A DNA stretch of 64,000 bases, from the NCBI GenBank assembly GCA_964530335.1, contig CAZGYG010000006.1:2451-66450 (forward strand). Reading direction: 5' to 3'. The notes below the pieces were generated by a model. It was not told the origin of the DNA and made no database searches. It saw nothing but the letters and a program-made list of their open reading frames with translations. Position numbers and translations under genes: made by a program. Origin of the DNA: an uncultured Rhodospirillaceae bacterium. GTDB taxonomy: Bacteria > Pseudomonadota > Alphaproteobacteria > SP197. Position 1 is the first letter of the stretch. The number at the start of each line of letters is the position of its first letter. Shown in pieces: positions 6,936-41,835 of this stretch.

Positions 6936-7010
6936 AATGCCCTCCGCGAACGACTCGGTTCACTCTTGGCCCGCCTTCGCCGATGGGTCAAGGCGCTCGG
7001 CCGCGCTCGA

Positions 7011-7110
7011 CCCCCGCCCGGGCGCGCGGGCGCGCGTCCCATCGCCGAGCCCGTCCTTGCCCCACCCTCTCACGCCGCTGCTCGCCGGCCTCGCCTCCAT
7101 CTCGGTGCGC
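7011..7110 (+). repeat. Diverged direct-repeat copy A of the upstream region and first about 20 codons of the acyl-CoA synthetase gene (a pseudo-start)
   Basis: cccccgcccgggcgcgcgggcgc (23/23 identical) and atcgccgagcccgtccttgccccaccctctcacgccgctgctcgcc (46/46 identical) are shared with 8029-8140. The copy encodes LPHPLTPLLAG... and terminates after 28 codons. Confidence 0.85.
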
Positions 7111-7281
7111 AGGATCGCCTCGCCCGGACGGATGCCGTAGCCCTCCACCGTCGGCGGGGGCGGCGTCGCGGGCCAGGTCATGGTCAAATGGATTTATTGT
7201 TCCTTGACAACAGTTTGCCGACAGTGGACGGAGCCCCCATGTTTGGGCTACAATGTGGCTCAACATAAGGAGTTCCGGCCC

Positions 7282-7539
7282 ATGAGGACCGTTGTTCGTG
7301 CGCGCATCGATGAGCGGGTGAAGAACGATGCCGCCGCCGTGCTGGCGTCCATCGGGCTTACCGTGTCCGACGCCTTCCGTCTCATGATGGTGCGCATCGC
7401 CACCGAGAAGCGGCTGCCTTTCGAGCCGCTGGTGCCTAATGCGGAGACCATCGAGGCCATGCAGGCCGCCCGGCGCGGCGACGTGGTCACCGTCGGCAGC
7501 GTGGACAACCTGCTGGCGGATCTGAATGCGGACGATTAG
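7282..7539 (+). CDS. dinJ: DinJ/RelB-family type II antitoxin
   Basis: 85 aa (MRTVVRARIDERVKNDAAAVLASIGLTVSDAFRLMMVRIATEKRLPFE) with strong similarity to E. coli DinJ. The locus is locally low in GC. Confidence 0.85.
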   Translation: MRTVVRARIDERVKNDAAAVLASIGLTVSDAFRLMMVRIATEKRLPFEPLVPNAETIEAMQAARRGDVVTVGSVDNLLADLNADD

Positions 7540-7807
7540 ACGCACCACCGCCTTCAAGCGCGACTACAAACGTGAGAAGAAGGGTCGGCATCGCCAGACG
7601 CTCGACGACGAGCTGTCGAAGGCGGTAGGGATGCTCGCCGCCGACGAGCCGCTTCCGCAGCGTTATCACGACCATCTCTTGGCCGGGGAATGGAACGATC
7701 ATCGGGATTGCCACATCAAGCCCGATCTGGTGGTGATTTACCGGAAGCCGGGCGACGAGACGCTCGTTCTGGTGCGCCTCGGTTCTCACAGCGAACTTGG
7801 GGTGTGA
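7526..7807 (+). CDS. yafQ: YafQ/RelE-family mRNA interferase toxin
   Basis: 93 aa (…FKRDYKREKKGRHRQ…LPQRYHDHLLAGEWNDHRDCHIKPDLVVIYR) with strong similarity to E. coli YafQ. Overlaps dinJ by 14 nt. Confidence 0.85.
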   Translation: MRTIRRTTAFKRDYKREKKGRHRQTLDDELSKAVGMLAADEPLPQRYHDHLLAGEWNDHRDCHIKPDLVVIYRKPGDETLVLVRLGSHSELGV

Positions 7808-7849
7808 CCGCTGAGGTCCCCTACCTGTAAGCTCCCGCCGCCGGATTGA

Positions 7850-8029
7850 GGACATATCTCCTCTCCGTTCAAGCGCCGGCGCCAATCCCTCGCCGCGGCC
7901 GATCTTGCGGGACATCAGGCTCTCCATCCGCTCGACGAAAACATCGATCAGCACCTCGCCCGCGGGCCCACGCCGGGTCTCGGTGCGGGCCTGGGTGTTG
8001 GGGACGGTGTTGTAGACGGTCGGCCGCAC
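7850..8029 (-). pseudogene. Possible N-terminal remnant (about 60 codons) of an unidentified gene, lying between the relE stop and repeat copy B
   Basis: The minus-strand ORF begins MRPTVYNTVPNTQARTETRRGPAGEVLIDVFVERMESLMSRKIGRGEG and then runs antisense into relE. Only the first about 60 codons lie outside relE. No family recognised. Confidence 0.2.
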
Positions 8030-8140
8030 CCCCGCCCGGGCGCGCGGGCGCTATAGTCCCGCGTCGCATCGCCGAGCCCGTCCTTGCCCCACCCTCTCAC
8101 GCCGCTGCTCGCCCCCGGCTCGATCGCCTTCGTCGGCGCC
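8029..8140 (+). repeat. Direct-repeat copy B: the genuine upstream region and 5' end of the acyl-CoA synthetase gene
   Basis: See 7011-7110. Contains the TTG start at 8084 (MPHPLTPLLAPGSIAFVGASP). Confidence 0.85.
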
Positions 8141-10153
8141 TCGCCGCGCGAGGGTTCGCTCGGCCACACCATGCTGCGCGTGATCCGGCACGGCGGCTAT
8201 CGCGGCACGATTCACCCGGTCAATCCGAACTACGACCGCATCGAGGACCTGCCCTGCCACCCCTCGCTCGCGGCGATCGGCGAACCGGTCGACCTGGCCG
8301 TGCTGGCCGTCGCGAACAGCCGCATCGAGGCCGCGCTCGAGGAGGCGATCGCCGCCGGGGCCCGCGCCGCCACGATCTTCGCCAGCGGTTATTTGGAGAA
8401 CGACGGCGATCCGCCGCTATTGTCCCGGCTGCGCGAGCTCGCCCGGGCGGCAGGCCTGCCGGTGTGCGGCGGCAACGCCATGGGCTTCTACAACCTGGAC
8501 GCCCGGACGCGGGTGTGCGGGTATTTGAACACGGTCGGCCCCGAGCAGGGCGGCATCGCGTTCATCACCCATTCGGGCTCGGTGTTCAGCGCGTTAGCCC
8601 ACAGCGATCCGCGGCTTGCCTACAACCTGGTCGTGTCGTCGGGCCAGGAGATCGCCACCACCGTTGCGGGCTACGTCGATTACGCGCTCGACCAGGAGAC
8701 CACCCGGGTCATCGGGCTTTTCCTCGAGACGGTGCGCGACGCGCCCGGGTTCCTCGCCGCCGCCGCCAGGGCGCTTGAGCGCCAGGTTCCCATCGTAGTG
8801 CTCAAGGTGGGGGTGGCGGCGGAATCCGCGCGCCTCGCGGTCAGCCATTCCGGAGCCATCGCCGGCGACGACGCCGCCTACGAGGCGGCGTTTGACCGCT
8901 ACGGCATCGTCCGAGTCGCCAGCCTGGACGAGCTGGCCGCGACGCTTCTGCTGCTCGGCCAGCCGCGCCGCGCCCGCGCCGGCGGGCTCGCCGCCATGCT
9001 CGATTCGGGCGGCGAGCGCGGCATGTTGATCGACCTGGCCCAGCGCCACGCCGTACCCTTCGCGGCGATCGCGCCCGCGACCCGCGCCCGGCTCGCCGCC
9101 CGGCTCGATTATGGGCTCGAGCCGGTCAACCCGCTCGACGCCTGGGGCACCGGCAACGACTTCGAAGGGGTATTGCGCGACTGCTTCCTGGCGCTGGCCG
9201 AGGACAAGGACACCGCCGCCGCGGTCATCTTCGCCGACATCCGCGATGCGGGATTCCTGTGCGGTCCCTACGAGCGGGTGCTGCGCCACGTCCACGCCAC
9301 GGTCGGCAAGCCGATCGCGCTGGCGCCCAACTTCTCGGGCGTCGCCCACGGCGAGGTGGCGCTGCGGCTTACCCGCGCCGGCATCCCCGTGCTCGACGGC
9401 ACCGAGAACGCGCTGGCCGCGATCGGGCATCTGTTCCGCCTGCGCGATGCCTGGGCGCGCCCCGAGCCGACGCCGCCGCAAGCCGACGCCGCCGCCGTCG
9501 CGCGCTGGAACGCGCGGCTCGGCAACGGCACGCTCGACGAGGCGGAGGCCCTGACCCTGCTCGCCGAGTTCGGGGTGCCGGCGTCGCCGACCGAGGTGAT
9601 CGACAGCCCCGAGGCCGCGCTCGCCGCCGCCGAACGCTTCGGCTTCCCGGTCGCGCTTAAGACCGCGCAACCGGGGATCGCGCACAAGTCGGACGTCGAT
9701 GGCGTGCGGCTGGGATTGGCCGACGGCGAGGCGCTGATCGCCGCCTACGTCGAATTGGCCGCGCGGCTGGGCCGGCGCATGGTCGTGGCGCCCATGGCCG
9801 GGCCGGGCGTCGAGCTCGCGTTTGGATTGGTGACCGACGCGCAGTTCGGCACGCTGGTCATGGTCGGCGCCGGGGGTACGCTGATCGAGGTGCTGCGTGA
9901 TCGCGTGGTCGCCTTGCCGCCGTTCGACCGCGCGACCGCACGGCGGCTGATCGACCGGCTCGCGCTTCGCCACTTGCTGGGGGGTGTGCGCGGCCGGCCG
10001 CCGGCCGATGTCGAGGCGCTGGCCGAGGCGTTCGCGCGGTTCTCGGTGCTGGCGGCCACTCTCGGCCCCCGCGTGGCCGAGATCGACGTCAACCCGGTGA
10101 TCTGCGGGCCACGAGGGCCCCTCGCCGTCGACGCCCTGGTGGTCGCCCGCTAA
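8084..10153 (+). CDS. Acyl-CoA synthetase, NDP/ADP-forming (acetate--CoA ligase [ADP-forming] family; CoA-binding, SCS-like and ATP-grasp domains)
   Basis: 689 aa with an N-terminal CoA-binding domain (IAFVGASPREGSLGHTML), a central ligase-CoA domain and a C-terminal ATP-grasp domain (GFPVALKTAQPGIAHKSDVDGVRLGL). Confidence 0.8.
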   Translation: MPHPLTPLLAPGSIAFVGASPREGSLGHTMLRVIRHGGYRGTIHPVNPNYDRIEDLPCHPSLAAIGEPVDLAVLAVANSRIEAALEEAIAAGARAATIFASGYLENDGDPPLLSRLRELARAAGLPVCGGNAMGFYNLDARTRVCGYLNTVGPEQGGIAFITHSGSVFSALAHSDPRLAYNLVVSSGQEIATTVAGYVDYALDQETTRVIGLFLETVRDAPGFLAAAARALERQVPIVVLKVGVAAESARLAVSHSGAIAGDDAAYEAAFDRYGIVRVASLDELAATLLLLGQPRRARAGGLAAMLDSGGERGMLIDLAQRHAVPFAAIAPATRARLAARLDYGLEPVNPLDAWGTGNDFEGVLRDCFLALAEDKDTAAAVIFADIRDAGFLCGPYERVLRHVHATVGKPIALAPNFSGVAHGEVALRLTRAGIPVLDGTENALAAIGHLFRLRDAWARPEPTPPQADAAAVARWNARLGNGTLDEAEALTLLAEFGVPASPTEVIDSPEAALAAAERFGFPVALKTAQPGIAHKSDVDGVRLGLADGEALIAAYVELAARLGRRMVVAPMAGPGVELAFGLVTDAQFGTLVMVGAGGTLIEVLRDRVVALPPFDRATARRLIDRLALRHLLGGVRGRPPADVEALAEAFARFSVLAATLGPRVAEIDVNPVICGPRGPLAVDALVVAR

Positions 10154-12066: not shown

Positions 12067-13208
12067 TGGAGCCGATCGCCACCATCCCCAACCCGGACCT
12101 CGCGGTCGGCACCGACAACAAGGCCCGCTGGAACCTGCCGGACCACCGGCGGCACGGCTTCCACAACCTGCACACCCTCGCCCGCTACGGCATGAGCTTC
12201 CGCGCCGCGCGGGTGATGACGCTTTCCAAGCGCATGGACATGCGCATCCCCGAGCTGCCCGAGGTGCGGCGGCTGACCTCGCTGCCCTGGTTCTCGGCCA
12301 TGGTGGTGATCCGGGGCCAGCACATCCTCTACGAGCGCTACGCGCCCGACTTCGGCCCCGACCGGCCGCACAACATCCAGTCGATCAACAAGACCGTGCT
12401 GAACCTGGCGGTCGGCCGCCTAGTCGAGGACGGCAAGATCGACGTCGGCCGCAAGGTGAAGGAGTACCTGCCCGAGATCGGTTCGGGCTACGCCGAGGCG
12501 ACCGTCCAGCAGGTCCTCGACATGGACGTGGCCAACGACTACACCGAGGACTTCACCGATCCGAACTCGACGTACTGGACCCACGAGGAGGCCATGGGCT
12601 GGCGCTTGCCGCGCGACCCGGCCCGCGAGGAGACCCAGAAATCCTTCGTCGTCCGCATCCGGAGCGACGACGTGACGAACCGGCTCGACCACATCCAGTA
12701 CAAGGACGCGAACAGCGTGGTGCTGGGGTGGATCGTCGAGCGGGTCGGCGGCCGGCCCTGGCGGGCGATTTTCGCCGACATCGCCGACGCGGCCGGGATC
12801 GAGGGCGTGCTCCACACCACCACCGACCGCGAGGGCTTCCCCACTCTGGAGGGCGGGGTCTGCATCACCGCCCGCGACCTCGCCCGCTACGCCGCGATCT
12901 TCGTCCGCCGGGGCCAGGGTGTCGATGGCCGCGCCGTCGGCAGCGCCCTGTTCATCGAGCGGAGCCTGGCCGCCGGCGTGCGGCTGGCCCCGCCGCGCGA
13001 GCACCTGCGCTACAGCAACCAGCTCAACACCGACGGCCGCTGGATCGGCCACGGCGGCTACGGCGGCCAGTACATGCTGGCGGACCTGACCAGCGGCGTG
13101 ATCGGCGTGTTCTTGAGCGTGGTCGAGGACAAGGACGGCTACCCCCTGCCCTACTACCCCCCGCTCATCGCCATGCTGGCCGAGATCGCACGGCTGGACG
13201 ACGCATGA
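12066..13208 (+). CDS. Beta-lactamase-fold serine hydrolase (class C beta-lactamase-related / 6-aminohexanoate-dimer-hydrolase-like)
   Basis: 380 aa with an S-x-x-K active-site motif (IQSINKTV). Start overlaps the upstream stop (TGATG). Confidence 0.75.
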   Translation: MEPIATIPNPDLAVGTDNKARWNLPDHRRHGFHNLHTLARYGMSFRAARVMTLSKRMDMRIPELPEVRRLTSLPWFSAMVVIRGQHILYERYAPDFGPDRPHNIQSINKTVLNLAVGRLVEDGKIDVGRKVKEYLPEIGSGYAEATVQQVLDMDVANDYTEDFTDPNSTYWTHEEAMGWRLPRDPAREETQKSFVVRIRSDDVTNRLDHIQYKDANSVVLGWIVERVGGRPWRAIFADIADAAGIEGVLHTTTDREGFPTLEGGVCITARDLARYAAIFVRRGQGVDGRAVGSALFIERSLAAGVRLAPPREHLRYSNQLNTDGRWIGHGGYGGQYMLADLTSGVIGVFLSVVEDKDGYPLPYYPPLIAMLAEIARLDDA

Positions 13209-13321
13209 ACGCCGCGGCTCCCTGGGACGCGTCCGATCCGCTCGCAAGCAAGCCTGTGCCGCGCCAGGGCGCCGATCCTTACTTGCGCGACGGGGCGCAT
13301 CTGACGCACACCTCGCCTTAG
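13205..13321 (+). repeat. Diverged duplicate of the 5' end of the HpaB-family gene (a pseudo-start, 38 codons)
   Basis: Encodes MNAAAPWDASDPLASKPVPRQGADPYLRDGAHLTHTSP* (compare MPNELPWKTPDPLVGKPVPRAGADPYLRDGAQY at 13780). About 80% nucleotide identity over about 70 bp. Its ATG overlaps the hydrolase stop (ATGA). Confidence 0.85.
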
Positions 13322-13626
13322 GCGGCCGCCCCCGCGGCCCTTGGCAAGCCCCTGATCTCCTTGCCCACGGCGCGCTCGGCCATCACCAGGTCGAGCTGGG
13401 CTTGCAGGTTCATCCAGAACTGGGGGTTGGTCCCGAACCAATGCCCGAGGCGCAAGGCCGTGTCCGCGGTTATGCCGCGCTTGCCCTGAATCAGTTGCGT
13501 CACTCGGTTGGGCGGTACTCGGAGCCGGCGGGCGAGCTCGGTCGGCGTGATGCCAAGCTCGCCCAACTCGTCCTTGAGCACCACGCCTGGGTGAATTCCT
13601 ACCCTCAACACGGTCTTTCCCTTCAT
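13318..13626 (-). CDS. higA: HigA-family antitoxin (XRE-type HTH; addiction-module antidote protein)
   Basis: MKGKTVLRVGIHPGVVLKDELGELGITPTELARRLRVPPNRVTQLIQGKRGITADTALRLGHWFGTNPQFWMNLQ is the canonical HigA motif set. Start chosen at the internal Met (13626) of the 13318..13686 ORF. Confidence 0.8.
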   Translation of the reverse strand: MKGKTVLRVGIHPGVVLKDELGELGITPTELARRLRVPPNRVTQLIQGKRGITADTALRLGHWFGTNPQFWMNLQAQLDLVMAERAVGKEIRGLPRAAGAAA

Positions 13627-13826
13627 CGGTGATAGTCCACGATCTCGACGTTGACCGGGCCTACGGCGTCGGATCGACATTGCCACTCATCTCCGCAGTT
13701 ATTCCGCTCGCCATACAGATACGATCCGATGCTGCGAGTCTTAAGGCTCGACTCCCGTAACCCACTCCGGACTCTTCCCATGCCCAACGAACTTCCGTGG
13801 AAGACCCCCGACCCTCTGGTCGGCAA
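13623..13826 (-). pseudogene. Degenerate higB (RelE/ParE-fold toxin, PF05015-like) remnant; only the C-terminal about 30 residues are recognisable
   Basis: C-terminus ...LYGERNNCGDEWQCRSDAVGPVNVEIVDYHR* matches the HigB C-terminal consensus (...LKGDR...W.I.F...DVEIVDYH). The N-terminal two thirds are unrecognisable and overlap the hpaB start. Overlaps the higA start (ATGA). Confidence 0.45.
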
Positions 13827-15276
13827 GCCGGTGCCGCGCGCGGGCGCCGACCCTTACTTGCGCGACGGCGCGCAGTACCGGGAATCGCTCCGCGACGGGC
13901 GCACGGTGATCGTGGCCGGGCGCGACGTGGCGGACGTGACGGCGGAACCGGGGCTCAAGCGCGGCATCGATACCCTGGCCGGGCTGTTCGACGCGCAGTT
14001 CGATCCGGTGCACCGCGACGTGACCACGGCGATCGACCCCGAGAGCGGCGAGCGCATCGCCACCGGCTGGCTGGTGCCGCGCACCGTCGACGATCTCAAG
14101 CGCCGCAGCCGGATGATCAAGTTCTCGACCCAGCGCACCTTCGGGGTGTTCGGCCGCCCGCCCGATTACGGCACGGTCAACCCGATCGGCTTCCTGGCCT
14201 TCGCCCACCTGATCGCGAAGGAGGACAGCGAGGCGCGCGCCAAGATCGAACGCTGCGTGCGCGTCGGCCAGCGCCACAACCTGGTCTCGACCGACATCAT
14301 CGTCGACGTCCAGGCCAACCGGAAGCTCACGGGCGCCGAGCTGCCGGGCCGGCTGCGCGTCATCGAGCGGCGCAAGGACGGCGTCGTGCTGTACGGCGCC
14401 AAGGCCGGCAACTCGGTGCTGGCCCAGGGCAACATGGGTTCGCTCGCCACCATCCTGAACCCGACGCTGCCAGACGACTGCGCGATCCTGGCCGCGCTGC
14501 CGGCCAACGCGCCGGGACTCAAGCTCTTGCTGCGCGAGGCCGTGACCCGGGGCGACGAGGATCCCGACGACCATCCGCTCGACGCCCAGGGCGAGGAGGC
14601 CGACGGAATCCTGATCTTCGACCGGGTGTTCGTGCCCGACGAGTACGTGTTCAGCGTCGGCAACCGCAAGGTGCTCGAGTATTACCACCTGATCGGCCAG
14701 CTCGCGTTCTGGAACATCGCGTCGCGCCTCGGCTACCGGGCCGAGATCTTCGCCGGCGCGGTCCAGCTCATCGTCAACGTGCTGGGCACCGACCACGTCC
14801 CCGCCGTGCGCGCCGCCGTGACCGAGGTGATCGGCTACGCCAGCGCGCTGCGCGCCTTCATGGTCGCCGCCGAGGAGAAGGCGAGCCCGACCGAGACCGG
14901 GGTGATGCTGCCGGACCACGCGCTGGTCACCGCCGGGCGGCTGCACTCGATCGTCGAGTACCCGCGCGTCATGCAGGTGCTGCGCGAGCTGTCGGGCCAG
15001 GGGTTGGTCAGCCGCGTGCCGCGCAAGACCTGGGAGCGCGCCGACCTCGGCCCCATGCTCGATGAGTTCCTTCCCGGGTTCGAGACCAGCGCGCGCGACA
15101 AGAACCGGCTGTTCAACCTGATCTGGGACCTGACGTGCAGCGCCCACGCCATGCGCGTCGCCATCTTCGAGAACGTCAACGCGACCCCGGCCTCGACGCT
15201 GCGCGAGGAGCTCTACAAGGTCTACGACCGCTCGGAGGGCATCGCCGTGGTCAAGCGCCTGGCCGGCATGGCTTGA
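13780..15276 (+). CDS. HpaB-family flavin-dependent monooxygenase (4-hydroxyphenylacetate 3-monooxygenase oxygenase-component family)
   Basis: About 498 aa from the ATG at 13780 (MPNELPWKTPDPLVGKPVPRAGADPYLRDG...), with HpaB N- and C-terminal domains. Confidence 0.75.
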   Translation: MPNELPWKTPDPLVGKPVPRAGADPYLRDGAQYRESLRDGRTVIVAGRDVADVTAEPGLKRGIDTLAGLFDAQFDPVHRDVTTAIDPESGERIATGWLVPRTVDDLKRRSRMIKFSTQRTFGVFGRPPDYGTVNPIGFLAFAHLIAKEDSEARAKIERCVRVGQRHNLVSTDIIVDVQANRKLTGAELPGRLRVIERRKDGVVLYGAKAGNSVLAQGNMGSLATILNPTLPDDCAILAALPANAPGLKLLLREAVTRGDEDPDDHPLDAQGEEADGILIFDRVFVPDEYVFSVGNRKVLEYYHLIGQLAFWNIASRLGYRAEIFAGAVQLIVNVLGTDHVPAVRAAVTEVIGYASALRAFMVAAEEKASPTETGVMLPDHALVTAGRLHSIVEYPRVMQVLRELSGQGLVSRVPRKTWERADLGPMLDEFLPGFETSARDKNRLFNLIWDLTCSAHAMRVAIFENVNATPASTLREELYKVYDRSEGIAVVKRLAGMA

Positions 15277-15334
15277 TCCCCCTCGTTCCGGAGCCATAGT
15301 ATCCCGCCGGCGTGCCGATTCGCGAGGGGAAGTC

Positions 15335-17116
15335 ATGGAATCAGGAGGGGAGCGCCGGGTCGAGCGCCGCCTTGCCGCGATCCTGGCCGCCGACGTGGCC
15401 GGCTACAGCCGGCTCATGGGCGTCGACGAGGAGGGCACGCTCGCGCAATTGAAGGGCCATCGGCGCGCCCTCGTCGACCCCAAGATCACGGAACACCGCG
15501 GGCGGATCGTCAAAACCACCGGCGACGGCATGCTGGTGGAGTTCGCCAGCGTGGTCGACGCCGTGCGTTGCGCCGCCGAAATTCAACGCGGCATGGTCGA
15601 GCGCAACGTCGACGTGCCGCCCGATCGGCGCATCGAGTTCCGCGTCGGCATCAACGTCGGCGACATCATCATCGACGGCGACGACATCTTCGGCGACGGC
15701 GTCAACATCGCGGCGCGCCTGGAAACCCTCGCCGCGCCCGGCGAAGTCTGGGTCGGCCGCACGGTTCGGGAGCAGGTGCGCGACAAGCTCGCGTTCGATT
15801 TCGAGGACATGGGCGAGCGCGAGGTCAAGAACATCGCCCGGCCGATCAAGGCCTATCGCATCGTGGCCAAGGAGCCCGTCACCGGCCCGGCCGCGGGTGT
15901 GGCGGACGCACCGTCGCTGCCGGTCAAATCCTCGATCGCCGTCCTGCCCTTCACCAACATGTCGGGCGATCCCGAGCAGGAATACTTCGCCGACGGCATG
16001 GTCGAGGACATCATCACCGCCCTGTCCCGGTTCAACCAGTTGTTCGTGATCGCCCGCAACTCGAGCTTTACCTACAAGGGCCGGGCGGTCGACGTGCGCC
16101 AGGTGGCCAAGGAGCTGGGCGTGCGCTTCGTGCTGGAAGGCAGCGTGCGCAAGGCGGGCAACCGCGTGCGCATCACCGGGCAGTTGATCGATGCCGCGAC
16201 CGGCGCCCATCTCTGGGCGGACCGGTTCGACGGTGGCCTGGAGGACGTCTTCGACCTCCAGGACAAGATCACCGCAAGCGTCGTCGGGGCGATCGAACCG
16301 ACCCTGCGCAAGGTGGAGATCGAACGCGCACGGCGCCGGCCCATCGAGAACCTCGATGCCTACGATCTCTATCTTCGCGCCTTGCCGCACGTCTACGCGT
16401 TTCGCCCAGACGACAATCGCCAGGGCTTCGAGCTGCTCCTGAAGGCGATCGACCTCGATCCCACCTATGCGCCGGCGCTGGCCTATGCCGCCTGGTGCCT
16501 CGAACAGCGCATCGTGCGGGGCTGGCCGCCGATCGGAGAGGACGACACAGGCACGGCGATCGCCCTCGCACGACGGGCGGTCGCCGCCGGTAGTGGCGAT
16601 GCGATGGCCTTGGTCGCCGCCGGGTTTGTCCTGGTGATGGTGGCGCGGGACTATGACACCGGCCTCGACGCCGTGCGCCGCGCGCTCGCGCTCAACCCCG
16701 GCTCCGGGTTCGTCACGTTCGTCTCGAGCGGCGCGCTGCTGTTCAGTGGCAATGCGGACGAGGCGTTGGTCCATATCGAACGGGCCATGGCCCTCAGCCC
16801 CTTGGATCCCGGCTTTTTCATGTACCTGGCCATCGCCGGTCTTGCCCACCTCGCGAACGGCCGCCCCGAGCAGGCCTTGCAACTGGGCAAGAAGTCGGCG
16901 GCCCTTTACCCCGACTGGGACACCGCCTACTGGCTCCTGGTCCCCGCGCATGTCCAACTCGGCAATCTGGGGGAGGCGCAGGCCGCGCTTGCCAGGCTCG
17001 TGGCCCTGACACCCGGAATGACGGTGTCCGGTACCCGCCGGCGTTTTCCGATCAGGAACCAGGAATTCTTGAACATGGTGCTCGACGGTCTCCGCGCGGC
17101 TGGCCTGCCGGAATGA
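15335..17116 (+). CDS. Class III adenylate/guanylate cyclase with a C-terminal TolB-like/TPR regulatory region
   Basis: N-terminal CHD cyclase domain (LAAILAADVAGYSRLMG...IVKTTGDGMLVEF...GINVGDII...GDGVNIAARLE) followed by about 400 aa of TPR-like helical repeats. Confidence 0.85.
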   Translation: MESGGERRVERRLAAILAADVAGYSRLMGVDEEGTLAQLKGHRRALVDPKITEHRGRIVKTTGDGMLVEFASVVDAVRCAAEIQRGMVERNVDVPPDRRIEFRVGINVGDIIIDGDDIFGDGVNIAARLETLAAPGEVWVGRTVREQVRDKLAFDFEDMGEREVKNIARPIKAYRIVAKEPVTGPAAGVADAPSLPVKSSIAVLPFTNMSGDPEQEYFADGMVEDIITALSRFNQLFVIARNSSFTYKGRAVDVRQVAKELGVRFVLEGSVRKAGNRVRITGQLIDAATGAHLWADRFDGGLEDVFDLQDKITASVVGAIEPTLRKVEIERARRRPIENLDAYDLYLRALPHVYAFRPDDNRQGFELLLKAIDLDPTYAPALAYAAWCLEQRIVRGWPPIGEDDTGTAIALARRAVAAGSGDAMALVAAGFVLVMVARDYDTGLDAVRRALALNPGSGFVTFVSSGALLFSGNADEALVHIERAMALSPLDPGFFMYLAIAGLAHLANGRPEQALQLGKKSAALYPDWDTAYWLLVPAHVQLGNLGEAQAALARLVALTPGMTVSGTRRRFPIRNQEFLNMVLDGLRAAGLPE

Positions 17117-17151
17117 TGGGTCCAATGTAGGGTTCTCGATGACGACGACGG

Positions 17152-17265
17152 GTCGCCATCTTCGAGAACGTCAACGCGGCCTCGACGCTGCGCGAGGAGC
17201 TCTACAAGGTCTACGACCGGTCGGAGGGCATCGCCGTGGTCAAGCGCCTGGCAGGCATGGCGTGA
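17152..17265 (+). repeat. Near-identical duplicate of the last about 115 bp of the HpaB-family gene (a pseudo-3' end)
   Basis: gtcgccatcttcgagaacgtcaacgcg...ggcatcgccgtggtcaagcgcctgg...atggc.tga matches 15157-15276 at about 97% identity, apart from a 6-bp in-frame deletion. It is in frame: VAIFENVNAASTLREELYKVYDRSEGIAVVKRLAGMA*. Confidence 0.9.
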
Positions 17266-17272
17266 ACACCCG

Positions 17273-18211
17273 TCAGCCGCGTCGACGGCCCCTGACGGTC
17301 TCGCGGTGGACGATGTAGAGCCCGGCGCCGACGATGAGCGCGAGCCCGATCCAGGTCGCGGGCGCGGGAAGATCGGCGAACACGAGGTACCCGGCCCCGA
17401 CCGCGAACGGCAGGCTCGAGTATTCGAACGGCGCGACCAGGCTGGCCGGGGCCGTGCGATACGCCTCGGCCAGCAGCAGGAAGCCGGCGGCGGAGATCGG
17501 CCCGGTCGCCGCGAGCAGCGCCAGGTCCAGCCACACGGGCAGCGACCAGGCGCGCAGGAGATAGCCGAGGATCGTGCCGCTCTGTTCGAACCGGCCGTCG
17601 CCCATGGCCAGCCCGGCGACGCCGGAAAGGACCAGCAGCAGCACGACCGAGTGGATCGCGAAGCCGGTGGCCGGCACCCGGCCGCCAGCCCGGCGCGTGA
17701 CCAGCATGGAACAGGCGTAGAAGAACGCCGCGCCGAGCGCGAGCACCATGGCCGGATCGACCGCCGTCACGTCCGGGCGCAGCACCACGACGACGCCGGC
17801 GAACCCGACCAGCACGGCCGCCCAGCGGCGCGGCCCCACGCGTTCGTGCAGGAAAGGCACCGACAGCGCGGTGATGAACAGCGGGTTGGCGTAATAGAGC
17901 GTCGAGGTCTCGGCCAGCGGCAACGCCGCGAGCGCCAGGTAGTAGCAGGTGAACGACACGAAGTGCAGAACGGCGCGCACGACCGCGGCGCCATGCAGGC
18001 GAAACGCCGCCGGATCGCCGCGCCACAGCGCGATCGCCAGGATGCACGGCAGGCCGGTGATGCTGCGGATGAACAGCATCTCGTGCAGCGGGTAGCTGCC
18101 CGAGAGCAGCTTGATGATGACGTCCTGGGCGACGAAGACGGAGACGCCGAGCGTCAGGCAGGCGATCCCGCGCAGCGGCGCGTCGGGAGCGTAGACCCTC
18201 GCATCGCTCAT
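17273..18211 (-). CDS. DMT-superfamily (EamA-like) transporter
   Basis: 312 aa with 10 predicted TM helices and two EamA repeats. Confidence 0.75.
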   Translation of the reverse strand: MSDARVYAPDAPLRGIACLTLGVSVFVAQDVIIKLLSGSYPLHEMLFIRSITGLPCILAIALWRGDPAAFRLHGAAVVRAVLHFVSFTCYYLALAALPLAETSTLYYANPLFITALSVPFLHERVGPRRWAAVLVGFAGVVVVLRPDVTAVDPAMVLALGAAFFYACSMLVTRRAGGRVPATGFAIHSVVLLLVLSGVAGLAMGDGRFEQSGTILGYLLRAWSLPVWLDLALLAATGPISAAGFLLLAEAYRTAPASLVAPFEYSSLPFAVGAGYLVFADLPAPATWIGLALIVGAGLYIVHRETVRGRRRG

Positions 18212-18329
18212 CGCGACGCCACGGACGTGCGTGTCATGGTCCGGTCGGCCCCCTCAGCCGGCTGGGTCGCCGGCCGGACGTGTCTAAGGCCGCGGGTGGC
18301 GGGGGCGCAAGCGGCCGCCGGGCCGAAGG

Positions 18330-18509
18330 CTAGAGAACGACCGCGATCTCGCTGACCAGGAACCACATGCCGGCGCAAGCGGCCAGCCAGACCAGCGTTG
18401 CCGTGGCCGGACCCATCCGCAGCGGCGCGACACGGGCGGCGGTTTCGCGCTCGAACCCGATCGGCTCGGCGAAGTCCGGTTCAGTCCCTTCGGTGCGCGA
18501 CGTGGCCAT
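18330..18509 (-). CDS. Hypothetical small membrane protein (about 59 aa, one TM helix)
   Basis: MATSRTEGTEPDFAEPIGFERETAARVAPLRMGPATATLVWLAACAGMWFLVSEIAVVL, taken from the internal Met of a longer minus ORF. No family assigned. Confidence 0.25.
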   Translation of the reverse strand: MATSRTEGTEPDFAEPIGFERETAARVAPLRMGPATATLVWLAACAGMWFLVSEIAVVL

Positions 18510-20019: not shown

Positions 20020-20045
20020 GTTGCGGTAAACCTTCTCCCTGCGGG

Positions 20046-20073
20046 CGCGACGGCGGATGCTCCCGCCGTCGCG
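20046..20073 (+). terminator. GC-rich hairpin after the M20 peptidase gene (putative intrinsic terminator without a clear U-tract)
   Basis: cgcgacggcgg-atgctc-ccgccgtcgcg, a perfect 11-bp stem with a 6-nt loop, 27 nt downstream of the stop codon. Confidence 0.35.
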
Positions 20074-20137
20074 GGTGGCGAGCGGAGCGAGCCGGATGAG
20101 GGACCTTACGCACCGGTCACGAACACAGGGCGCAACC

Positions 20138-21178
20138 ATGCCGCGGGCGTTTCGATTTCCCGGACTTCTCGCCATCGTTACGGTGGGTTTGTTCCTGAGT
20201 TTCGCCGCCGCCGCGGGACCGCTCGATGACGGGGTCGCGGCGTACGAGCAGGGCGACTATGCGACGGCGGTGGAGCTTTGGCGCCCGCTGGCCGAGCAAG
20301 GCGACTCCTGGGCCCAGTTCAACCTCGGCTACATGTACGACAACGGCCTTGGCGTGACGCAGGACGCCGCCGAGGCGGCGCGCTGGTACCGGATGGCGGC
20401 CGACCAGGGGCACGCCGGTGCTCAAACCAGCCTCGGCTACATGTACTACGACGGCCGGGGCGTGGCACAGGACGATGCCGAAGCGGCGCGGCTCTACCGC
20501 CTGGCGGCCGAGCAGGGCGTCGCCTTGGCCCAGAACAACCTCGGTTACATGTACCAGAACGGCTGGGGCGTACCTCAGGACGACACCGAGGCGGTGAACT
20601 GGTACCGCCAGGCGGCCGAGAAGGGTGACGCCGACGCCCAGAACAACCTTGGCATCATGTACGATGCCGGCCGGGGCGTGCCACAGGACGACGCCGAGGC
20701 AGTGAACTGGTACCGCCTGGCGGCCGATCAGGGGCACGCCGGCGCCCAAGGCAATCTCGGCGCCATGTACGCCAACGGCCGGGGCGTGGCGCAGGACGAA
20801 GCCGAAGCGGTGCGGCTTTACCGCCTGGCGGCCGACCAGGGGCACTCCGGCGCCCAGTACAACCTCGGCCTCGCGTACGACAGCGGCCGGGGCGTGGCGC
20901 AGGACTTCGTCGAGGCCGCGCACTGGTACCGCATGGCTGCCGACCGGGGCGACGGCTATGCCCAGGTCAACCTCGGAGTCATGTACCTGAACGGCGAAGG
21001 CGTAGAGCAGGATCTCGTTCAGGCCCATCTCTGGTTCGACCTGGCGGCGGCGGGGTTTGCGCCGGGCGAGGACCAGGATTTCGCGCTGGAGAACCGCGAC
21101 GGGGTCGCGGCCGAGATGAACCCGGATCAGGTGGCGGAGGCGCAGCGGCTGGCGGCCGAGTGGCAACCGCTACCGTGA
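20138..21178 (+). CDS. Sel1-repeat (SLR/TPR-like) protein, secreted; 7 Sel1 repeats
   Basis: N-terminal signal peptide (MPRAFRFPGLLAIVTVGLFLSFAAAAG) followed by 7 x 36-aa Sel1 repeats (...A..WYR.AA.QG.A.AQ.NLG.MY..G.GV.QD...) and a conserved C-terminal tail (...LENRDGVAAEMNPDQVAEAQRLAAEWQPLP). Confidence 0.85.
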   Translation: MPRAFRFPGLLAIVTVGLFLSFAAAAGPLDDGVAAYEQGDYATAVELWRPLAEQGDSWAQFNLGYMYDNGLGVTQDAAEAARWYRMAADQGHAGAQTSLGYMYYDGRGVAQDDAEAARLYRLAAEQGVALAQNNLGYMYQNGWGVPQDDTEAVNWYRQAAEKGDADAQNNLGIMYDAGRGVPQDDAEAVNWYRLAADQGHAGAQGNLGAMYANGRGVAQDEAEAVRLYRLAADQGHSGAQYNLGLAYDSGRGVAQDFVEAAHWYRMAADRGDGYAQVNLGVMYLNGEGVEQDLVQAHLWFDLAAAGFAPGEDQDFALENRDGVAAEMNPDQVAEAQRLAAEWQPLP

Positions 21179-21277
21179 GGGGGGCGGTCGGAGTGCCGTC
21201 GTGGCGCACGAAGATGCGGGCCCGGCTTGGTCGCCTGATGCTGAGAATGAAGGGTGCTCACTAAGGAGGAGGTAACC

Positions 21278-22747
21278 ATGTCGTGGATGCTGCGATTCCC
21301 TAGGCCGGTCGTCGTCGCGGCGGCCCTCCTCCTCGGATTTCCCGCGACCGCGGGACCGCTCGAGGACGGGGTCGCGGCGTATGAGCAGGGCGACTATGCG
21401 ACGGCGGTGGAGCTTTGGCGCCCGCTGGCCGAGCAAGGCGACTCCTGGGCCCAGTTCAACCTCGGCTACATGTACGAGTACGGCCTGGGCGTGACGCAGG
21501 ACTATGCCGAGGCGGCGCGGCTCTACCGCCTGGCGGCCGACCAGGGGAACGACGCGGCTCAAGACAACCTCGGCTACCTGTACGAGAGCGGCCTGGGCGT
21601 GACGCAGGGCCATGCCGAGGCGGCGCGGCTTTATCGCCTGGCGGCCGAGCAAGGGAACGCCAACGCCCAAGACAACCTCGGCTACCTGTACGAGAACGGC
21701 CTGGGAGTGCCACAGGACTATGCCGAGGCGGTGAATTGGTACCGCCAGGCGGCCGAGCAGGGCGACGCCGACGCTCAAGACAGTCTCGGCTACATGTACC
21801 AATACGGCCTCGGCGTGGCGGAGGACGACAACGAAGCGGTGAACTGGTACCGCCTGGCGGCCGAGCAGGGGCTCGCCAATGCCCAGTTCGACCTCGGCTA
21901 CATGTACGAGAGCGGTCTGGGCGTGGCGCAGGACCTTGCCGAGGCGGCGCGGCTTTATCGCCTGGCGGCCGAGCAAGGGGACGCCGACGCCCAGAACAAC
22001 CTCGGAGTCATGTACAGCACCGGCCGGGGCGTGCCGCTGGACGACGTCGAGGCGGTACGGCTCTACCGCCTGGCGGCCGAGCAGGGGGATGCGGGAGCCC
22101 AGAACAATCTTGGCTACATGTACGACAGGGGCGAGGGCGTGCCGGAGGACGACGCCGAGGCGGTGCGGCTCTATAGCCTGGCGGCCGACCAGGGGTACGC
22201 CGAAGCCCAGAATAACCTCGGCCTCATGTACGACTACGGCCGGGGCGTGCCGCTGGACGACGCCGAGGCGGTGAACTGGTACCGCCAGGCGGCCGAGCAG
22301 GGGTTCGCCGAAGCCCAAAACAACCTCGGCTACATGTACGCCCACGGCGAGGGCGTGGCGGAGGACGCCACCGAGGCGGTGCGCTGGTACCGCCTGGCGG
22401 CCGAGCAGGGCGACGCCTGGGCCCAAAACAATCTCGGCTGGATGTACGAAACCGGTGATGGCGTGGCGGAAGACGACGCCGAGGCGGTGCGTTGGTACCG
22501 CCAAGCGGCCGAGCAGGGACACGGCAAGGCCCAGAGCAACCTCGGCTACTTGTACCAGAACGGCGAGGGCACAGAGGTGGACCTCGTTCAGGCCCACCTC
22601 TGGTACGACCTCGCGGCGTCGGGGTTTGCGCCGGGCGAGGACCTGGATTTCGCGCTGGAGAACCGCGACGCGGTCGCGGCCGAGATGACCCCGGATCAGT
22701 TGGCGGAAGCGCAGCGGCTGGCGGCCGAGTGGCAGCCCGTGGAGTGA
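21278..22747 (+). CDS. Sel1-repeat protein, secreted; 11 Sel1 repeats (tandem paralogue)
   Basis: RBS aaggaggagg, signal peptide (MSWMLRFPRPVVVAAALLLGFPATAG), 11 Sel1 repeats, and the same C-terminal tail as the upstream paralogue. Confidence 0.85.
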   Translation: MSWMLRFPRPVVVAAALLLGFPATAGPLEDGVAAYEQGDYATAVELWRPLAEQGDSWAQFNLGYMYEYGLGVTQDYAEAARLYRLAADQGNDAAQDNLGYLYESGLGVTQGHAEAARLYRLAAEQGNANAQDNLGYLYENGLGVPQDYAEAVNWYRQAAEQGDADAQDSLGYMYQYGLGVAEDDNEAVNWYRLAAEQGLANAQFDLGYMYESGLGVAQDLAEAARLYRLAAEQGDADAQNNLGVMYSTGRGVPLDDVEAVRLYRLAAEQGDAGAQNNLGYMYDRGEGVPEDDAEAVRLYSLAADQGYAEAQNNLGLMYDYGRGVPLDDAEAVNWYRQAAEQGFAEAQNNLGYMYAHGEGVAEDATEAVRWYRLAAEQGDAWAQNNLGWMYETGDGVAEDDAEAVRWYRQAAEQGHGKAQSNLGYLYQNGEGTEVDLVQAHLWYDLAASGFAPGEDLDFALENRDAVAAEMTPDQLAEAQRLAAEWQPVE

Positions 22748-22797
22748 ATGAGCGCCGGCCCATCGTGCGCGGCCACCGCCTCGGCGTACGATGATCC

Positions 22798-22869
22798 GAG
22801 GTGCGGCTGAACGCGCCGGTGCCGGGCGCGGCGCTTACCGCGACCGCCGCGCTTACGTGACCGCACCTC
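22798..22869 (+). other. Long imperfect hairpin between Sel1 paralogues 2 and 3
   Basis: gaggtgcgg ... ccgcacctc arms enclose about 55 nt containing internal cgcttac direct repeats. It lies immediately upstream of the signal-peptide-less third paralogue. Confidence 0.4.
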
Positions 22870-22897
22870 AACCGCGATTGTCCAGCAAGGATCGGAC

Positions 22898-24088
22898 TTG
22901 ATCCCTTTCGACCCCTTCAAGGAAGGCCTTGCGGCGTTCAAGCGTGGCGACTATGCGGCGGCGGCGGAGCTGTGGCGTCCGCTGGCCGAGCAGGGTATGG
23001 CCGAAGCCCGGTACTACCTCGCCGTGCTGTACGACAACGGCAAGGGCGTAGCACAAGACGACGCCGAGGCGGTGCGGCTCTACCGCCTGGCGGCCGATCA
23101 GGGGGATGCCGCCGCCCAAACCAACCTCGGTACGATGTACCTCGACGGCCGGGGCGTGCCACGGGACGACGCCGAGGCAGCGCGGCTCTACCGCCTGGCG
23201 GCCGACCAGGGGTTGGCCAAAGCCCAATACAACCTAGGGCTCATGTACTGGAACGGCAGGGGCATGCCAAAGGACGACGCCGAGGCGGCGCGCTGGAGCC
23301 GCCTGGCGTCCGACCGGGGGATGGCCGAAGCGCAGTACAACCTAGGGCTCATGTACCGCAACGGCTGGGGCGTGCCGCGCGACGACGCCGAGGCGGCGCG
23401 CTTGTTCCGCCTGGCGGCCGACCAGGGGGACGCCGAAGCCCAGTACAACCTCGGGCTCATGTACCGGAACGGCAAGGGCGTGCCACGGGACGACGCCGAG
23501 GCGGCGCGCTGGTTCCGCCTGGCGGCCGACCAGGGGATGGCCCAAGCCCAGTTCAAACTCGGCTTCATGTACGACAACGGCAGGGGCGTGCCACGGGACG
23601 ACGCCGAGGCGGTGCGGCTCTACCGCCTGGCGGCCGAGCAGGGGTACGCCGGTGCCCAGTACAACCTCGGGCTCATGTATGACAACGGCGAGGGCGTGCC
23701 AATGGACGACGCCGAGGCGGTGCGGCTCTACCGCCTTGCGGCCGAACAGGGGATGGCCCAAGCCCAGTTCAACCTCGGGCTCATGTACCGCAACGGCGAG
23801 GGCGTGCCAATGGACGACGCCGAGGCGGCGCGCTGGTTCCGCCTTGCGGCCAATCAGGGGATGGCCGAAGCCCAGTTCAACCTCGCCGTCAGGTACCAGA
23901 ACGGCGAAGGCGTAGAGCAGGATCTCGTCCAGGCCCATCTCTGGTTCGACCTGGCGGCGTCGGAGTTCCCGCCGGGCGAGGACCAGGATCTCGCGCTGGA
24001 GAACCGCAACGCGGTCGCGGCCGAGATGACCCCGGATCAGGTGGCGGAGGCGCAGCGGCTGACGGCCGAGTGGCAGCCCGTGCCGTGA
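22898..24088 (+). CDS. Sel1-repeat protein; 9 repeats, no signal peptide, TTG start (tandem paralogue, possibly 5'-truncated)
   Basis: Begins LIPFDPFKEGLAAFKRGDYAAAAELWRPLAEQG, exactly where the mature domain of paralogues 1 and 2 begins. The in-frame stop at 22808 leaves no room for a signal peptide. Carries the same C-terminal tail. Confidence 0.7.
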   Translation: MIPFDPFKEGLAAFKRGDYAAAAELWRPLAEQGMAEARYYLAVLYDNGKGVAQDDAEAVRLYRLAADQGDAAAQTNLGTMYLDGRGVPRDDAEAARLYRLAADQGLAKAQYNLGLMYWNGRGMPKDDAEAARWSRLASDRGMAEAQYNLGLMYRNGWGVPRDDAEAARLFRLAADQGDAEAQYNLGLMYRNGKGVPRDDAEAARWFRLAADQGMAQAQFKLGFMYDNGRGVPRDDAEAVRLYRLAAEQGYAGAQYNLGLMYDNGEGVPMDDAEAVRLYRLAAEQGMAQAQFNLGLMYRNGEGVPMDDAEAARWFRLAANQGMAEAQFNLAVRYQNGEGVEQDLVQAHLWFDLAASEFPPGEDQDLALENRNAVAAEMTPDQVAEAQRLTAEWQPVP

Positions 24089-39367: not shown

Positions 39368-39838
39368 ATGGACGGCGACCGGCAGCTCCTGGTCGTCGCC
39401 CACGCGCCGTCGGCCAACACCCGCCGGCTGATCGAGGCGGTCGAGGACGGCATCCGGTCGGCCGAGGCGGCGAGCGTGCGCTGGCGGGTCATGCGCCCGT
39501 TCGACGCCGGGCCCGACGACGTGCGCGGCGCCCGCGCGATCATCCTGGGGACGACCGAGAACCTCGGCTACATGAGCGGGGCGCTCAAGGACTTCTTCGA
39601 CCGCGTCTATTACCCGTGCCTCGAGCACACCCAGGGACTGCCCTACGCGCTCGTCATCCGCGCCGGGCACGACGGCACCGGCACGCGGCGCGGCGTCGAG
39701 ACCATCGTGACGGGCTTGCGCTGGCGCGCGGTGCAGGAGCCCGTGGTCCTGAGGGGCCCGTGGCAGGAGGCGTTCCTCGAGCCCTGCCGGGAGCTCGGCG
39801 CCGCGATGGCCGCCGGGCTCGACGCCGGGGTGTTCTGA
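39368..39838 (+). CDS. Flavodoxin-like fold protein (NAD(P)H-dependent FMN reductase / flavodoxin family)
   Basis: 156 aa; LLVVAHAPSANTRRL...AIILGTTENLGYMSGALKDFFDR fits a flavodoxin-like fold. Confidence 0.55.
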   Translation: MDGDRQLLVVAHAPSANTRRLIEAVEDGIRSAEAASVRWRVMRPFDAGPDDVRGARAIILGTTENLGYMSGALKDFFDRVYYPCLEHTQGLPYALVIRAGHDGTGTRRGVETIVTGLRWRAVQEPVVLRGPWQEAFLEPCRELGAAMAAGLDAGVF

Positions 39839-41216: not shown

Positions 41217-41469
41217 ACCTCCTAATGCGCATTCCGATCGCGTGGAAGCGTGCTCCGTCCACCCCCTTCGACGCCGCCTGCGGCGTCGCTCAGGACAGGC
41301 TTCAAGACGCGGCCCTGCGGGCGTGGCGGCGGTTGCTCCCGCCCCCACACCTCAGGGCGAACGGGCAAGAGAAACAGACGTTCGTGGTGAGGAGGCGCGA
41401 AGCGCCGTCTCGAACCACGGACTGCGTCACGCACCCCGGTGATCCCATGGGATCGAAACCTGCTGTACA

Positions 41470-41822: not shown

Positions 41823-41835
41823 CCCTCCGTTGCGG

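Follow-up and report, generated by a model that had tools for sequence, protein, structure and literature searches.

A predicted nucleotidyl cyclase gene between two allele-like copies of an hpaB 3' end in an uncultured Rhodospirillaceae bacterium

The window analysed here, a stretch of 64,000 nucleotides from an uncultured Rhodospirillaceae bacterium, contains an intact hpaB-family gene and, convergent with it, an EamA-family transporter gene. Between the two lie a predicted nucleotidyl cyclase gene and a second, truncated copy of the hpaB 3' end. The features of the locus, in window coordinates, are as follows.

13205-13299, plus strand: hpaB relic comprising the first 31 codons, its ATG overlapping the stop of a beta-lactamase-like gene (identity to 13780-13874)
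13318-13686, minus strand: higA-like gene, inserted after the 5' hpaB relic
13780-15276, plus strand: intact hpaB-family monooxygenase gene, 498 aa (PF11794, PF03241, orthologues)
15157-15276, plus strand: copy A, the hpaB 3' end of 39 codons and TGA, contiguous with the cyclase
15277-15334, plus strand: left junction and the upstream region kept with the cyclase (compared with the upstream regions in L007, L008, L009, L039 and L041)
15335-17116, plus strand: putative acquired cargo, coding for a predicted class III nucleotidyl cyclase of 593 aa with TPRs in its C-terminal part (PF00211 and TPR families)
17117-17151, plus strand: right end of the insert, with spacer, ribosome-binding site and the first 13 nt of a next gene (comparison with L008)
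17149-17156, no strand: putative illegitimate junction between the insert end and resident hpaB codon 459 (three-way alignment of window junction, L008 and hpaB target)
17152-17265, plus strand: copy B, an hpaB 3' end stranded on the EamA side as an untranslatable relic
17273-18211, minus strand: native gene of the neighbourhood, coding for an EamA-family transporter and convergent with hpaB (PF00892, conserved gene order)

As judged from its domains, the target gene product is an HpaB-family flavin-dependent monooxygenase in which both the N-terminal and the C-terminal HpaB domain are present (PF11794, E = 9e-55, 186.6 bits; PF03241, E = 3e-37, 128 bits), and orthologues with 88-91% identity occur in L004, L005, L006 and L038. 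The cargo is a predicted class III nucleotidyl cyclase (PF00211, E = 7e-12, 45.7 bits against a cut-off of 21.9), whose catalytic residues were inspected by eye; its GC3 is 0.87, compared with 0.93-0.97 in the neighbouring genes. Upstream of the cyclase, the left junction retains a conserved -10-like motif, CATAGTAT, at 15295-15302 and the ribosome-binding site GAGGGG at 15324-15329, 6 nt upstream of the ATG, while a region farther upstream that is conserved in the cyclase orthologues is missing at the window's hpaB/cyclase boundary. A promoter and terminator scan of 15100-17400 yielded nothing beyond shuffled expectation and no consensus promoter or terminator. A candidate third, older hpaB 3' relic beside the small ORF next to EamA (18200-18345) gave alignment scores inside the shuffled range.

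In alignment, copies A and B share 111 of 114 bases, the only gap being 6 bp long and in frame, and a self-blastn of the window pairs 15154-15282 with 17149-17271 at E = 3e-45, far beyond chance. Positions 15182-15187 of copy A are absent from copy B, which removes a Thr-Pro, and the three substitutions lie at 15231 (C/G), 15264 (C/A) and 15273 (T/G). Alignment and blastn thus bear out the first-pass annotation, which had described the hpaB 3' end as repeated at 17152-17265 with a 6-bp in-frame deletion and three substitutions; its placing of the cyclase, with its own ribosome-binding site, between the copies also holds. It had copy B ending 8 bp before the EamA stop; with the last base of the copy B TGA at 17265 and the EamA stop codon at 17273-17275, the gap is 7 nt. 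Copy A completes hpaB and abuts the cyclase, whereas the truncated copy B begins at codon 459 and is contiguous with the resident EamA flank; its hpaB frame has no start codon and is closed by a TGA at 17140. The string specific to copy B is GTCAACGCGGCCTCGACGCTG...CGGTCGGAGG.

The same arrangement was found in an independent metagenome contig (L001, JGI sample 3300010391, 3241 bp), which differs from the window by 9 SNPs (99.7% identity), reaches from the 3' part of hpaB through the cyclase and copy B into EamA, and carries identical differences between copies A and B. The repeat is therefore not an assembly artefact, an outcome that the first-pass annotation had named as fatal to its reading. 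Two further contigs, from Logan assemblies of other runs, match the window at 100% and terminate within copy B at 17223, as expected of a k-mer assembler that reaches a repeat.

Comparison with relatives supports the view that the cyclase represents additional DNA where hpaB meets EamA. In L004 and L006, hpaB directly abuts a small membrane ORF with no cyclase, and L012/L013 have EamA, the small ORF and M20, again without it; this order is conserved in L012/L013 and in L038, where a higBA toxin-antitoxin (TA) module, flanked by a duplicated EamA 3' end, sits between hpaB and EamA in place of the cyclase. The nearest cyclase homologues (79-85% aa identity) occupy five other genomic contexts; in one of these (L009/L010), a homologue with 80% identity lies between the copies of a 150-bp repeat derived from the 3' end of an unrelated hydrolase gene. 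A true empty site of the same strain was not recovered by hpaB protein look-up, genome scan or metagenome scan with EamA: the exact look-up returned no contig, the genome scan found only two relatives, both at 88%, and the metagenome scan found none closer than 70%. Separately, the distribution of SNPs between L001 and the window, and between L009 and L010, hints that strains may recently have exchanged the cargo segment, but we place no reliance on it, as these SNPs lie near contig ends.

The right end of the insert could be traced to a particular gene. Its last 13 nt, ATGACGACGACGG, with an ATG at 17139, correspond to the start of the gene found next downstream of the cyclase in L008, and AGGGTTCTCGATGACGACGA matches L008 at 20 of 20 positions, where a 198-aa ORF begins (7793-8389). 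The junction reads ...GACGACGACGG followed directly by GTCGCC..., the join falling between the two. Here the parents overlap only by short, imperfect similarity (CGG/CGC, then GTCGCC). An illegitimate join of this kind would be expected to show 3-10 bp of microhomology; the comparison with L008, itself no closer to the true source than 81% aa, gives 2-3 exact nt plus an imperfect GGTGCGCC versus GCGTCGCC. One repeat edge thus coincides with the hpaB stop, where gene order diverges among strains, and the other lies 13 nt into the neighbouring gene; an edge at a gene end together with a random break in a neighbour gene is the geometry expected if homology stops at the gene boundary. The term cassette, used for the insert at first, does not fit a segment whose right end is the first 13 nt of a neighbour gene and which has no terminal repeats, shared ends or nearby recombinase.

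Counting the hpaB/cyclase event, seven similar events are resolved in the window and its relatives, with comparable structures in four other assemblies (L005, L009, L010 and L038) and the structure of event E1 confirmed by L042. All seven repeats are gene termini, 52-192 bp long and drawn from 5' as well as 3' gene ends, and all exceed the RecA threshold of roughly 30 bp (quoted in PMC2884548). Three of the seven have a repeat edge that coincides exactly with a start or stop codon; two junctions have been hit twice each, in different strains, and most of the inserts have a G+C content below that of their flanks. No common core was found among the seven repeats, and the seven inserts have neither terminal inverted repeats (the score is at the level of shuffled controls) nor shared end motifs. 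Between 4.7 and 28.3 kb of the window, about 10 kb around the insert, there is no recombinase gene. A transposon, insertion sequence or MITE was accordingly rejected, there being no terminal inverted repeat, no transposase and a repeat of 114-120 bp where a target duplication would measure 2-14 bp. An integron gene cassette, which would carry an attC site at its 3' end and depend on an intI/attI platform, is likewise disfavoured: here that end consists of the beginning of a neighbour gene, no inverted-repeat structure is common to the insert ends and no intI lies nearby.

The 5' end of hpaB has left a relic as well. Positions 13205-13299 are 79-90% identical to 13780-13874, and the empty state is seen in L004, where the beta-lactamase-like gene and hpaB overlap. 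This relic retains every residue on which the orthologues agree, departing from the intact gene only where they themselves vary, and it therefore diverged while still within a working gene. Upstream of the higA-like gene, the sole support for a higB remnant is an 8-residue C-terminal match (E = 0.003), with no Pfam hit. Against a single 3.85-kb fragment with higA, hpaB and the cyclase that replaced the middle of a resident hpaB stands the unequal divergence of the two repeats, with 11/32 third positions changed in the 5' one and 4/41 in the 3' one (Fisher P ~0.015, our own estimate); we therefore disfavour it.

The differences between copies A and B bear on how the repeat arose. All three substitutions fall at third positions and are synonymous, and the single indel, of 6 bp, keeps the frame; the same pattern recurs in two other young events, E7 in L038 (3/3 changes synonymous and an in-frame 6-bp indel) and E4 at 41473/42034 of the window (2/2 synonymous, including a Ser AGC/TCC switch). 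On this basis, copies A and B look like two alleles rather than the products of an in-situ duplication. If a gene end had been duplicated in situ and its relic had decayed neutrally, the combined probability of the patterns in E3, E4 and E7 would be ~1e-3, or ~1e-4 with the two indels; for the hpaB/cyclase event alone, the codon argument on three substitutions is weak (P ~0.07, or 0.02 with the in-frame indel). The older events E5 and E6 show a mixture of synonymous and non-synonymous changes. At the three variable sites copy A has the state of the closest relative, L038, relative to which all three substitutions and the deletion look derived in copy B, and the Thr-Pro deleted from copy B is conserved in the orthologues examined. 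This derived state and the loss of a conserved Thr-Pro also fit partial decay of a relic. Both window copies end in a derived TGA, where all four relatives have TAG, and the two parents must therefore have been very close. Where the first-pass annotation had left a choice between duplication and replacement of the gene end, the allele-like differences make replacement the better fit and speak against duplication. If the copies are alleles, their identity gauges the divergence of donor and recipient, not the age of the event, so that the proposed ranking of this event as more recent than the TA insertions is undecidable.

We lean towards an explanation in which DNA of a close relative, bearing hpaB and then the cyclase, would have integrated through hpaB homology and one illegitimate join, by homology-facilitated illegitimate recombination or by a single crossover. 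The donor, either a very close relative or a paralogous locus, would have had the cyclase directly after hpaB and the 198-aa gene after that; in the recipient, hpaB and EamA would have faced each other tail to tail with 7 bp between them. On one side, the exchange would have relied on sequence homology inside hpaB, while on the other the incoming end, broken 13 nt into the post-cyclase gene, would have been joined illegitimately to resident hpaB codon 459. This could have occurred by homology-facilitated illegitimate recombination of a linear fragment, or by end-to-end circularization of a ~2-kb fragment and a single RecA crossover within the ~120 bp of hpaB homology. The functional hpaB would then finish in the imported allele (copy A), with the cyclase next to it, and copy B, the final 38 codons of the resident allele, would be stranded as an untranslated relic by EamA; the cyclase may be expressed from the retained -10-like motif and ribosome-binding site, by read-through from hpaB, or both. 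Because the hpaB/cyclase boundary lacks the upstream region conserved in orthologues, the donor arrangement itself would need an earlier illegitimate event. That arrangement (hpaB, cyclase, complete downstream gene) is absent from the six cyclase and five hpaB contexts retrieved, which, given such sparse sampling, is weak evidence.

It is unlikely, though well worth weighing, that a free fragment, the cyclase with truncated flanks, was instead joined into a break between hpaB and EamA, by end joining or replicative template switching, with ~120 bp of target copied on both sides and copy B decaying afterwards. Both insert ends resemble random breakpoints (the upstream cut on the left, 13 nt of the next gene on the right), so that one event with two illegitimate joins would suffice and no donor arrangement would be needed. 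The copies are also each other's nearest relatives, with the derived TGA in both, every change maps to copy B, and the lower G+C of most inserts is in keeping with such a capture. End-joining uptake of heterologous DNA at breaks is known in another alphaproteobacterium, Sinorhizobium meliloti (PMC6379672), where capture by Ku/LigD likewise involves arbitrary fragments and needs neither recombinase nor homology. However, a text search of that paper gives no mention of duplications, and allele-like repeat differences are not predicted by such capture. The synonymous-only differences and in-frame indels of E3, E4 and E7 are improbable for a neutral relic, the repeat edges lying exactly at start or stop codons in three events are not predicted, and literature searches gave no bacterial process that yields target duplications of 50-190 bp; they likewise gave no direct precedent for long target duplications, repeat-flanked TA insertions or templated insertions with flanking duplications in bacteria.

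Rather improbable, in our estimate, is a larger duplication that was later trimmed: two substantial or complete hpaB copies around the cyclase, arising for example by a single crossover over long homology or by segmental duplication, followed by a deletion that began at codon 5 of the 198-aa gene and reached codon 458 of the second hpaB. Single crossovers are known to produce duplications of up to 950 bp (PMC3240628), the deletion joint would give the same right junction, and the allele-like differences would be explained equally well. This scheme nevertheless requires an extra event, and the relics of all seven events are short, with no long-second-copy intermediate in the window or its relatives. 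Similarly doubtful is an undescribed, lineage-specific process that inserts arbitrary gene-sized fragments (TA modules, signalling genes) at gene boundaries and duplicates 50-190 bp of target; it could operate through widely staggered breaks or through template switching from ORF ends.

Islands integrated by tyrosine integrases at the 3' ends of tRNA or protein genes leave an intact gene, then the cargo, then the displaced 3' end as a direct repeat downstream. It is because the locus shares this geometry that a site-specific element, with a replacement gene end (attL/attR) and an integrase since lost, deserves mention, but we hold it to be very improbable: there is no integrase or other recombinase within ~10 kb, the seven repeat pairs share no core and derive from 5' gene ends as well as 3' ones, the cargo consists of one gene or one TA pair with truncated flanks, and the insert, 1.9 kb long, ends inside a neighbour gene. 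That strain variants were stitched in tandem during assembly is scarcely credible, even though the window is a metagenome-derived contig and short-read contigs break within copy B, since the junction must be present in reads for any assembler to build it, L001 has the same structure in another assembly with its 9 SNPs in the flanks, comparable structures recur in the other assemblies, and L042 confirms that of E1.

If, as we prefer, integration was anchored in hpaB homology and completed by one illegitimate join, the locus is on balance probably a natural example of a known process. [quoted passage not shown] By contrast with the laboratory cases, in which ~1 kb of the recipient is usually deleted, the join here lies within the region homologous to the anchor, so that the recipient gene end is kept as a relic; the microhomology here is also short and imperfect. 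In E. coli, DNA with one homologous segment gives mostly single-crossover products that duplicate 109-950 bp of the homologous locus (lacZ), together with rarer cases of homology-facilitated illegitimate recombination (PMC3240628). Such Campbell-type integration, by a circularized fragment with a short homologous segment, likewise places the cargo between direct repeats of that segment, in a size range shared with our events (52-192 bp); it was observed with engineered plasmids in conjugation, whereas here it would be read from natural sequence, in which it is indistinguishable from homology-facilitated illegitimate recombination. The variable segments of E. coli, S. aureus and S. pyogenes (PMC2884548) are also of gene size or smaller, strain-variable, located at hot spots and ascribed mainly to illegitimate recombination, but their repeats are mostly <30 bp and were read as deletion substrates, unlike the gene termini of 52-192 bp described here.

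The entry of single accessory genes and orphan TA modules without integrase or transposase is poorly documented in natural populations. The locus and its relatives provide seven sequence-resolved examples, in one of which the junction is defined to a few bases, and the leftover gene ends record both parental alleles. On our reading, the relics also point to repeated entry at two boundaries, hpaB/EamA and NeuB/acyl-CoA-synthetase. If this reading is true, such relics would be a searchable signature of homology-anchored illegitimate integration, and could be used to measure the share of bacterial gene gain that it accounts for.

The last 39 codons of hpaB and its TGA (15157-15276, copy A) occur a second time at 17152-17265 (copy B), confirming the repeat described in the first-pass annotation (blastn of the window against itself, E = 3e-45). 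The genes concerned are as follows.

13780-15276: hpaB, both HpaB domains present
15335-17116: class III cyclase gene with TPR repeats, 593 aa (PF00211), between copies A and B
17273-18211: EamA gene (PF00892), convergent with hpaB

In a codon-aware comparison, 111 of 114 bases are identical across the two copies, with one 6-bp gap (15182-15187 missing in copy B, with loss of Thr-Pro); the three substitutions (15231, 15264 and 15273) all lie at codon position 3 and are all synonymous. The stop codons of copy B and EamA are separated by 7 nt. A 59-aa chimeric ORF at 17139-17318 begins at the ATG of a truncated neighbour gene, passes through copy B out of the hpaB frame and continues into the 3' end of EamA; it is probably meaningless. 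An assembly artefact is unlikely, as contig L001 (JGI sample 3300010391; 3,241 bp, 99.7% identity to the window) independently carries the same structure (hpaB 3' part, cyclase, copy B and EamA) with the same differences between copies; none of its nine SNPs relative to the window falls within 15131-17760. Two Logan contigs assembled from other sequencing runs match the window exactly and end in copy B at 17223, the point at which a k-mer assembler is expected to fail on the repeat.

Relatives without the cyclase at hpaB were found. L006 and L004, the latter a genome bin from Lake Baikal, carry hpaB orthologues (88-90% amino acid identity) whose stop is abutted by a convergent small membrane ORF, followed by an M20 peptidase gene; both cyclase and EamA are absent at this locus. 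In L012 and L013 (EamA, 70% amino acid identity) the order is two deacetylase genes, EamA, small ORF, M20 and an amidohydrolase gene, so the grouping of EamA, the small ORF and M20 is native. In the closest relative, L038 (hpaB DNA 91% identical), hpaB and EamA face each other with a higB-higA module in place of the cyclase, flanked by direct repeats of the EamA 3' end (86-100 bp, 97.7% identical). The window must once have had hpaB facing EamA in this way, and the cargo acquired at this single junction thus differs between the two strains, with a gene end duplicated each time. In L038 the hpaB stop region is also duplicated in tandem over 19 bp (1650-1700; CCGGAATGGC[T/G]TAGGTT twice), and upstream of hpaB a beta-lactamase-like gene is reduced to ~50 nt from its 5' end (100-170), indicating deletion of that gene in this strain; window positions 13745-13779 are similar to L038 sequence upstream of hpaB. 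Further along the window (20057-24088), three tandem genes with ~27 Sel1 repeats (108-bp period) separate the M20 peptidase gene from the amidohydrolase gene; L004 and L012 have these two genes side by side.

The window contains three further inserts bounded by repeated gene ends.

6991-7086 and 8014-8113: repeats around relB-yafQ (7180-7807), confirmed by contig L042
13205-13299 and 13780-13874 (hpaB 5' end): repeats around a higA insert
41473-41524 and 42034-42085: repeats around a 79-aa ORF, which has no Pfam match

The relB-yafQ repeats (~100 bp, 84% identical) cover the start of an acyl-CoA-synthetase-like gene (8084), namely its upstream region and its first 10 codons; the two copies agree at all 30 coding bases, and the 70 non-coding bases carry 3 substitutions and 14 gapped positions. 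Contig L005 carries a different insert at this intergenic site; L005 has a 192-bp repeat pair around an insert ending in a truncated IS256-type transposase fragment. At the higA insert (13205-13779), the first 31 hpaB codons are kept as a relic, a leftover gene end; its start codon and the stop of the beta-lactamase-like gene overlap as ATGA. Next come a higA-like HTH gene on the minus strand (13318-13686) and possibly a remnant of the higB C-terminus (..NVEIVDYH). At the third insert, the 5' end of an 805-aa dehydrogenase gene (42046), RBS plus 13 codons, recurs 561 bp upstream at 92% identity. Only one 45-bp case occurred in ~170 kb of other contigs with similar G+C. The window also holds short dispersed intergenic repeats of about 30-40 bp that share around 90% identity, at 41900-41998, 46142-46182, 39800-39838, 41832-41870, 41313-41343, 45951-45979 and 20037-20102; some form hairpins, for example ATGCCCGGCACGAGGCCGGGCAT, and a family of REP-like elements is a possible interpretation.

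The relic of a repeat formed in place is expected to decay neutrally, and the relics here depart from that expectation. At the cyclase, all substitutions are synonymous and all indels multiples of three; in L038, three of three substitutions are synonymous, accompanied by an in-frame indel; and at 41.5 kb both coding substitutions are synonymous, one being a Ser AGC/TCC switch. Under in-situ duplication, with synonymous changes in the constrained copy allowed for, the chance of this pattern in three events is ~1e-3, or ~1e-4 with the two indels (for the cyclase event alone, 0.07, or 0.02 with its indel). The hpaB 5' relic (79-90% identical to hpaB) retains every orthologue-conserved residue and differs only where orthologues vary; judged from its sequence, it behaves as a divergent allele, not a decayed copy. 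Together with the coding identity of the relB-yafQ repeats, these patterns make the relics resemble the ends of once-working genes, and it looks as if one repeat copy was resident and the other arrived with the cargo. Of the two options in the first-pass annotation, replacement of the gene end on insertion was thus nearly right, the copies differing as alleles would; duplication in place fits less well. If the copies are alleles, their identity gives no age ranking against the toxin-antitoxin inserts. Both window copies end in TGA, in contrast to TAG in four of four relatives, and the parents were therefore very close. Polarized against L038, all copy A/B changes fall in copy B, and its missing Thr-Pro is conserved in the orthologues examined, which makes some decay of copy B after the event likely.

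Capture of a fragment in situ with a long target duplication would suffice as a single event, and end-joining capture of DNA is known in Sinorhizobium (PMC6379672), but this leaves both the codon pattern and the repeat edges at codon boundaries unexplained; we give it about one chance in a handful. A larger duplication, trimmed later, seems more doubtful still. The simplest process giving this outcome is, with somewhat better than even confidence, homology-anchored integration: incoming DNA carrying hpaB and then the cyclase would pair through its hpaB with the resident gene and become established through a homologous exchange on one side and an illegitimate join on the other. Alternatively, the fragment could circularize and enter by a single crossover within its ~120 bp of homology. 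Both routes predict the edges observed: one falls at the end of homology, the hpaB stop codon, beyond which strains differ in gene order, and the other at an arbitrary break. When DNA carrying a single homologous segment integrated in E. coli, most products were single crossovers duplicating 109-950 bp of the locus, homology-facilitated illegitimate events being rarer (PMC3240628). The donor arrangement, hpaB then cyclase, was not found among the contigs retrieved; the boundary of hpaB and the cyclase, for its part, resembles the joint of an earlier illegitimate event.

The 35 nt 3' of the cyclase stop (17117-17151) match contig L008, where a 198-aa ORF comes after a cyclase homologue (81% amino acid identity). 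The window retains the ribosome-binding region and first 13 nt of this ORF (20/20 identical to L008 over AGGGTTCTCGATGACGACGA), then switches abruptly to hpaB codon 459. At the left end, the 58-nt spacer holds an RBS and a -10-like motif, the motif being conserved upstream of all cyclase homologues, and lacks the conserved region found further upstream in them. Both ends therefore mark the insert as a fragment of another locus, and the 'cassette' of the first-pass annotation is not borne out: the insert lacks defined ends and terminal inverted repeats. An integrase-borne island is likewise unlikely, there being no recombinase gene between 4.7 and 28.3 kb of the window and no common core across seven repeat pairs.

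The six closest cyclase homologues (79-85% amino acid identity) lie in six different contexts; the one in contig L009 and its strain variant L010 lies between copies of a 150-bp repeat (85-89% identical) that corresponds to the 3' end of an unrelated hydrolase gene. L009 also has 74-bp inverted repeats around an RraA-like gene (1471-1542 and 2544-2617), L010 a 17-bp tandem duplication across the cyclase stop (2045-2061), and contig L007 a tandem array of 72-bp period after its cyclase (8164-8544). Between L009 and L010, 10 of 11 SNPs fall within the relic of L009 or its right flank; both here and between L001 and the window (14668-17904), SNPs avoid the cargo and cluster in flanks or relic. 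This hints at recent exchange of the cargo segment between strains, with the caveat that several of these SNPs are close to contig ends.

The cyclase event exemplifies, in a natural sequence, a class of recombination that is already known, and its recurrence in the lineage of the window makes it more interesting.
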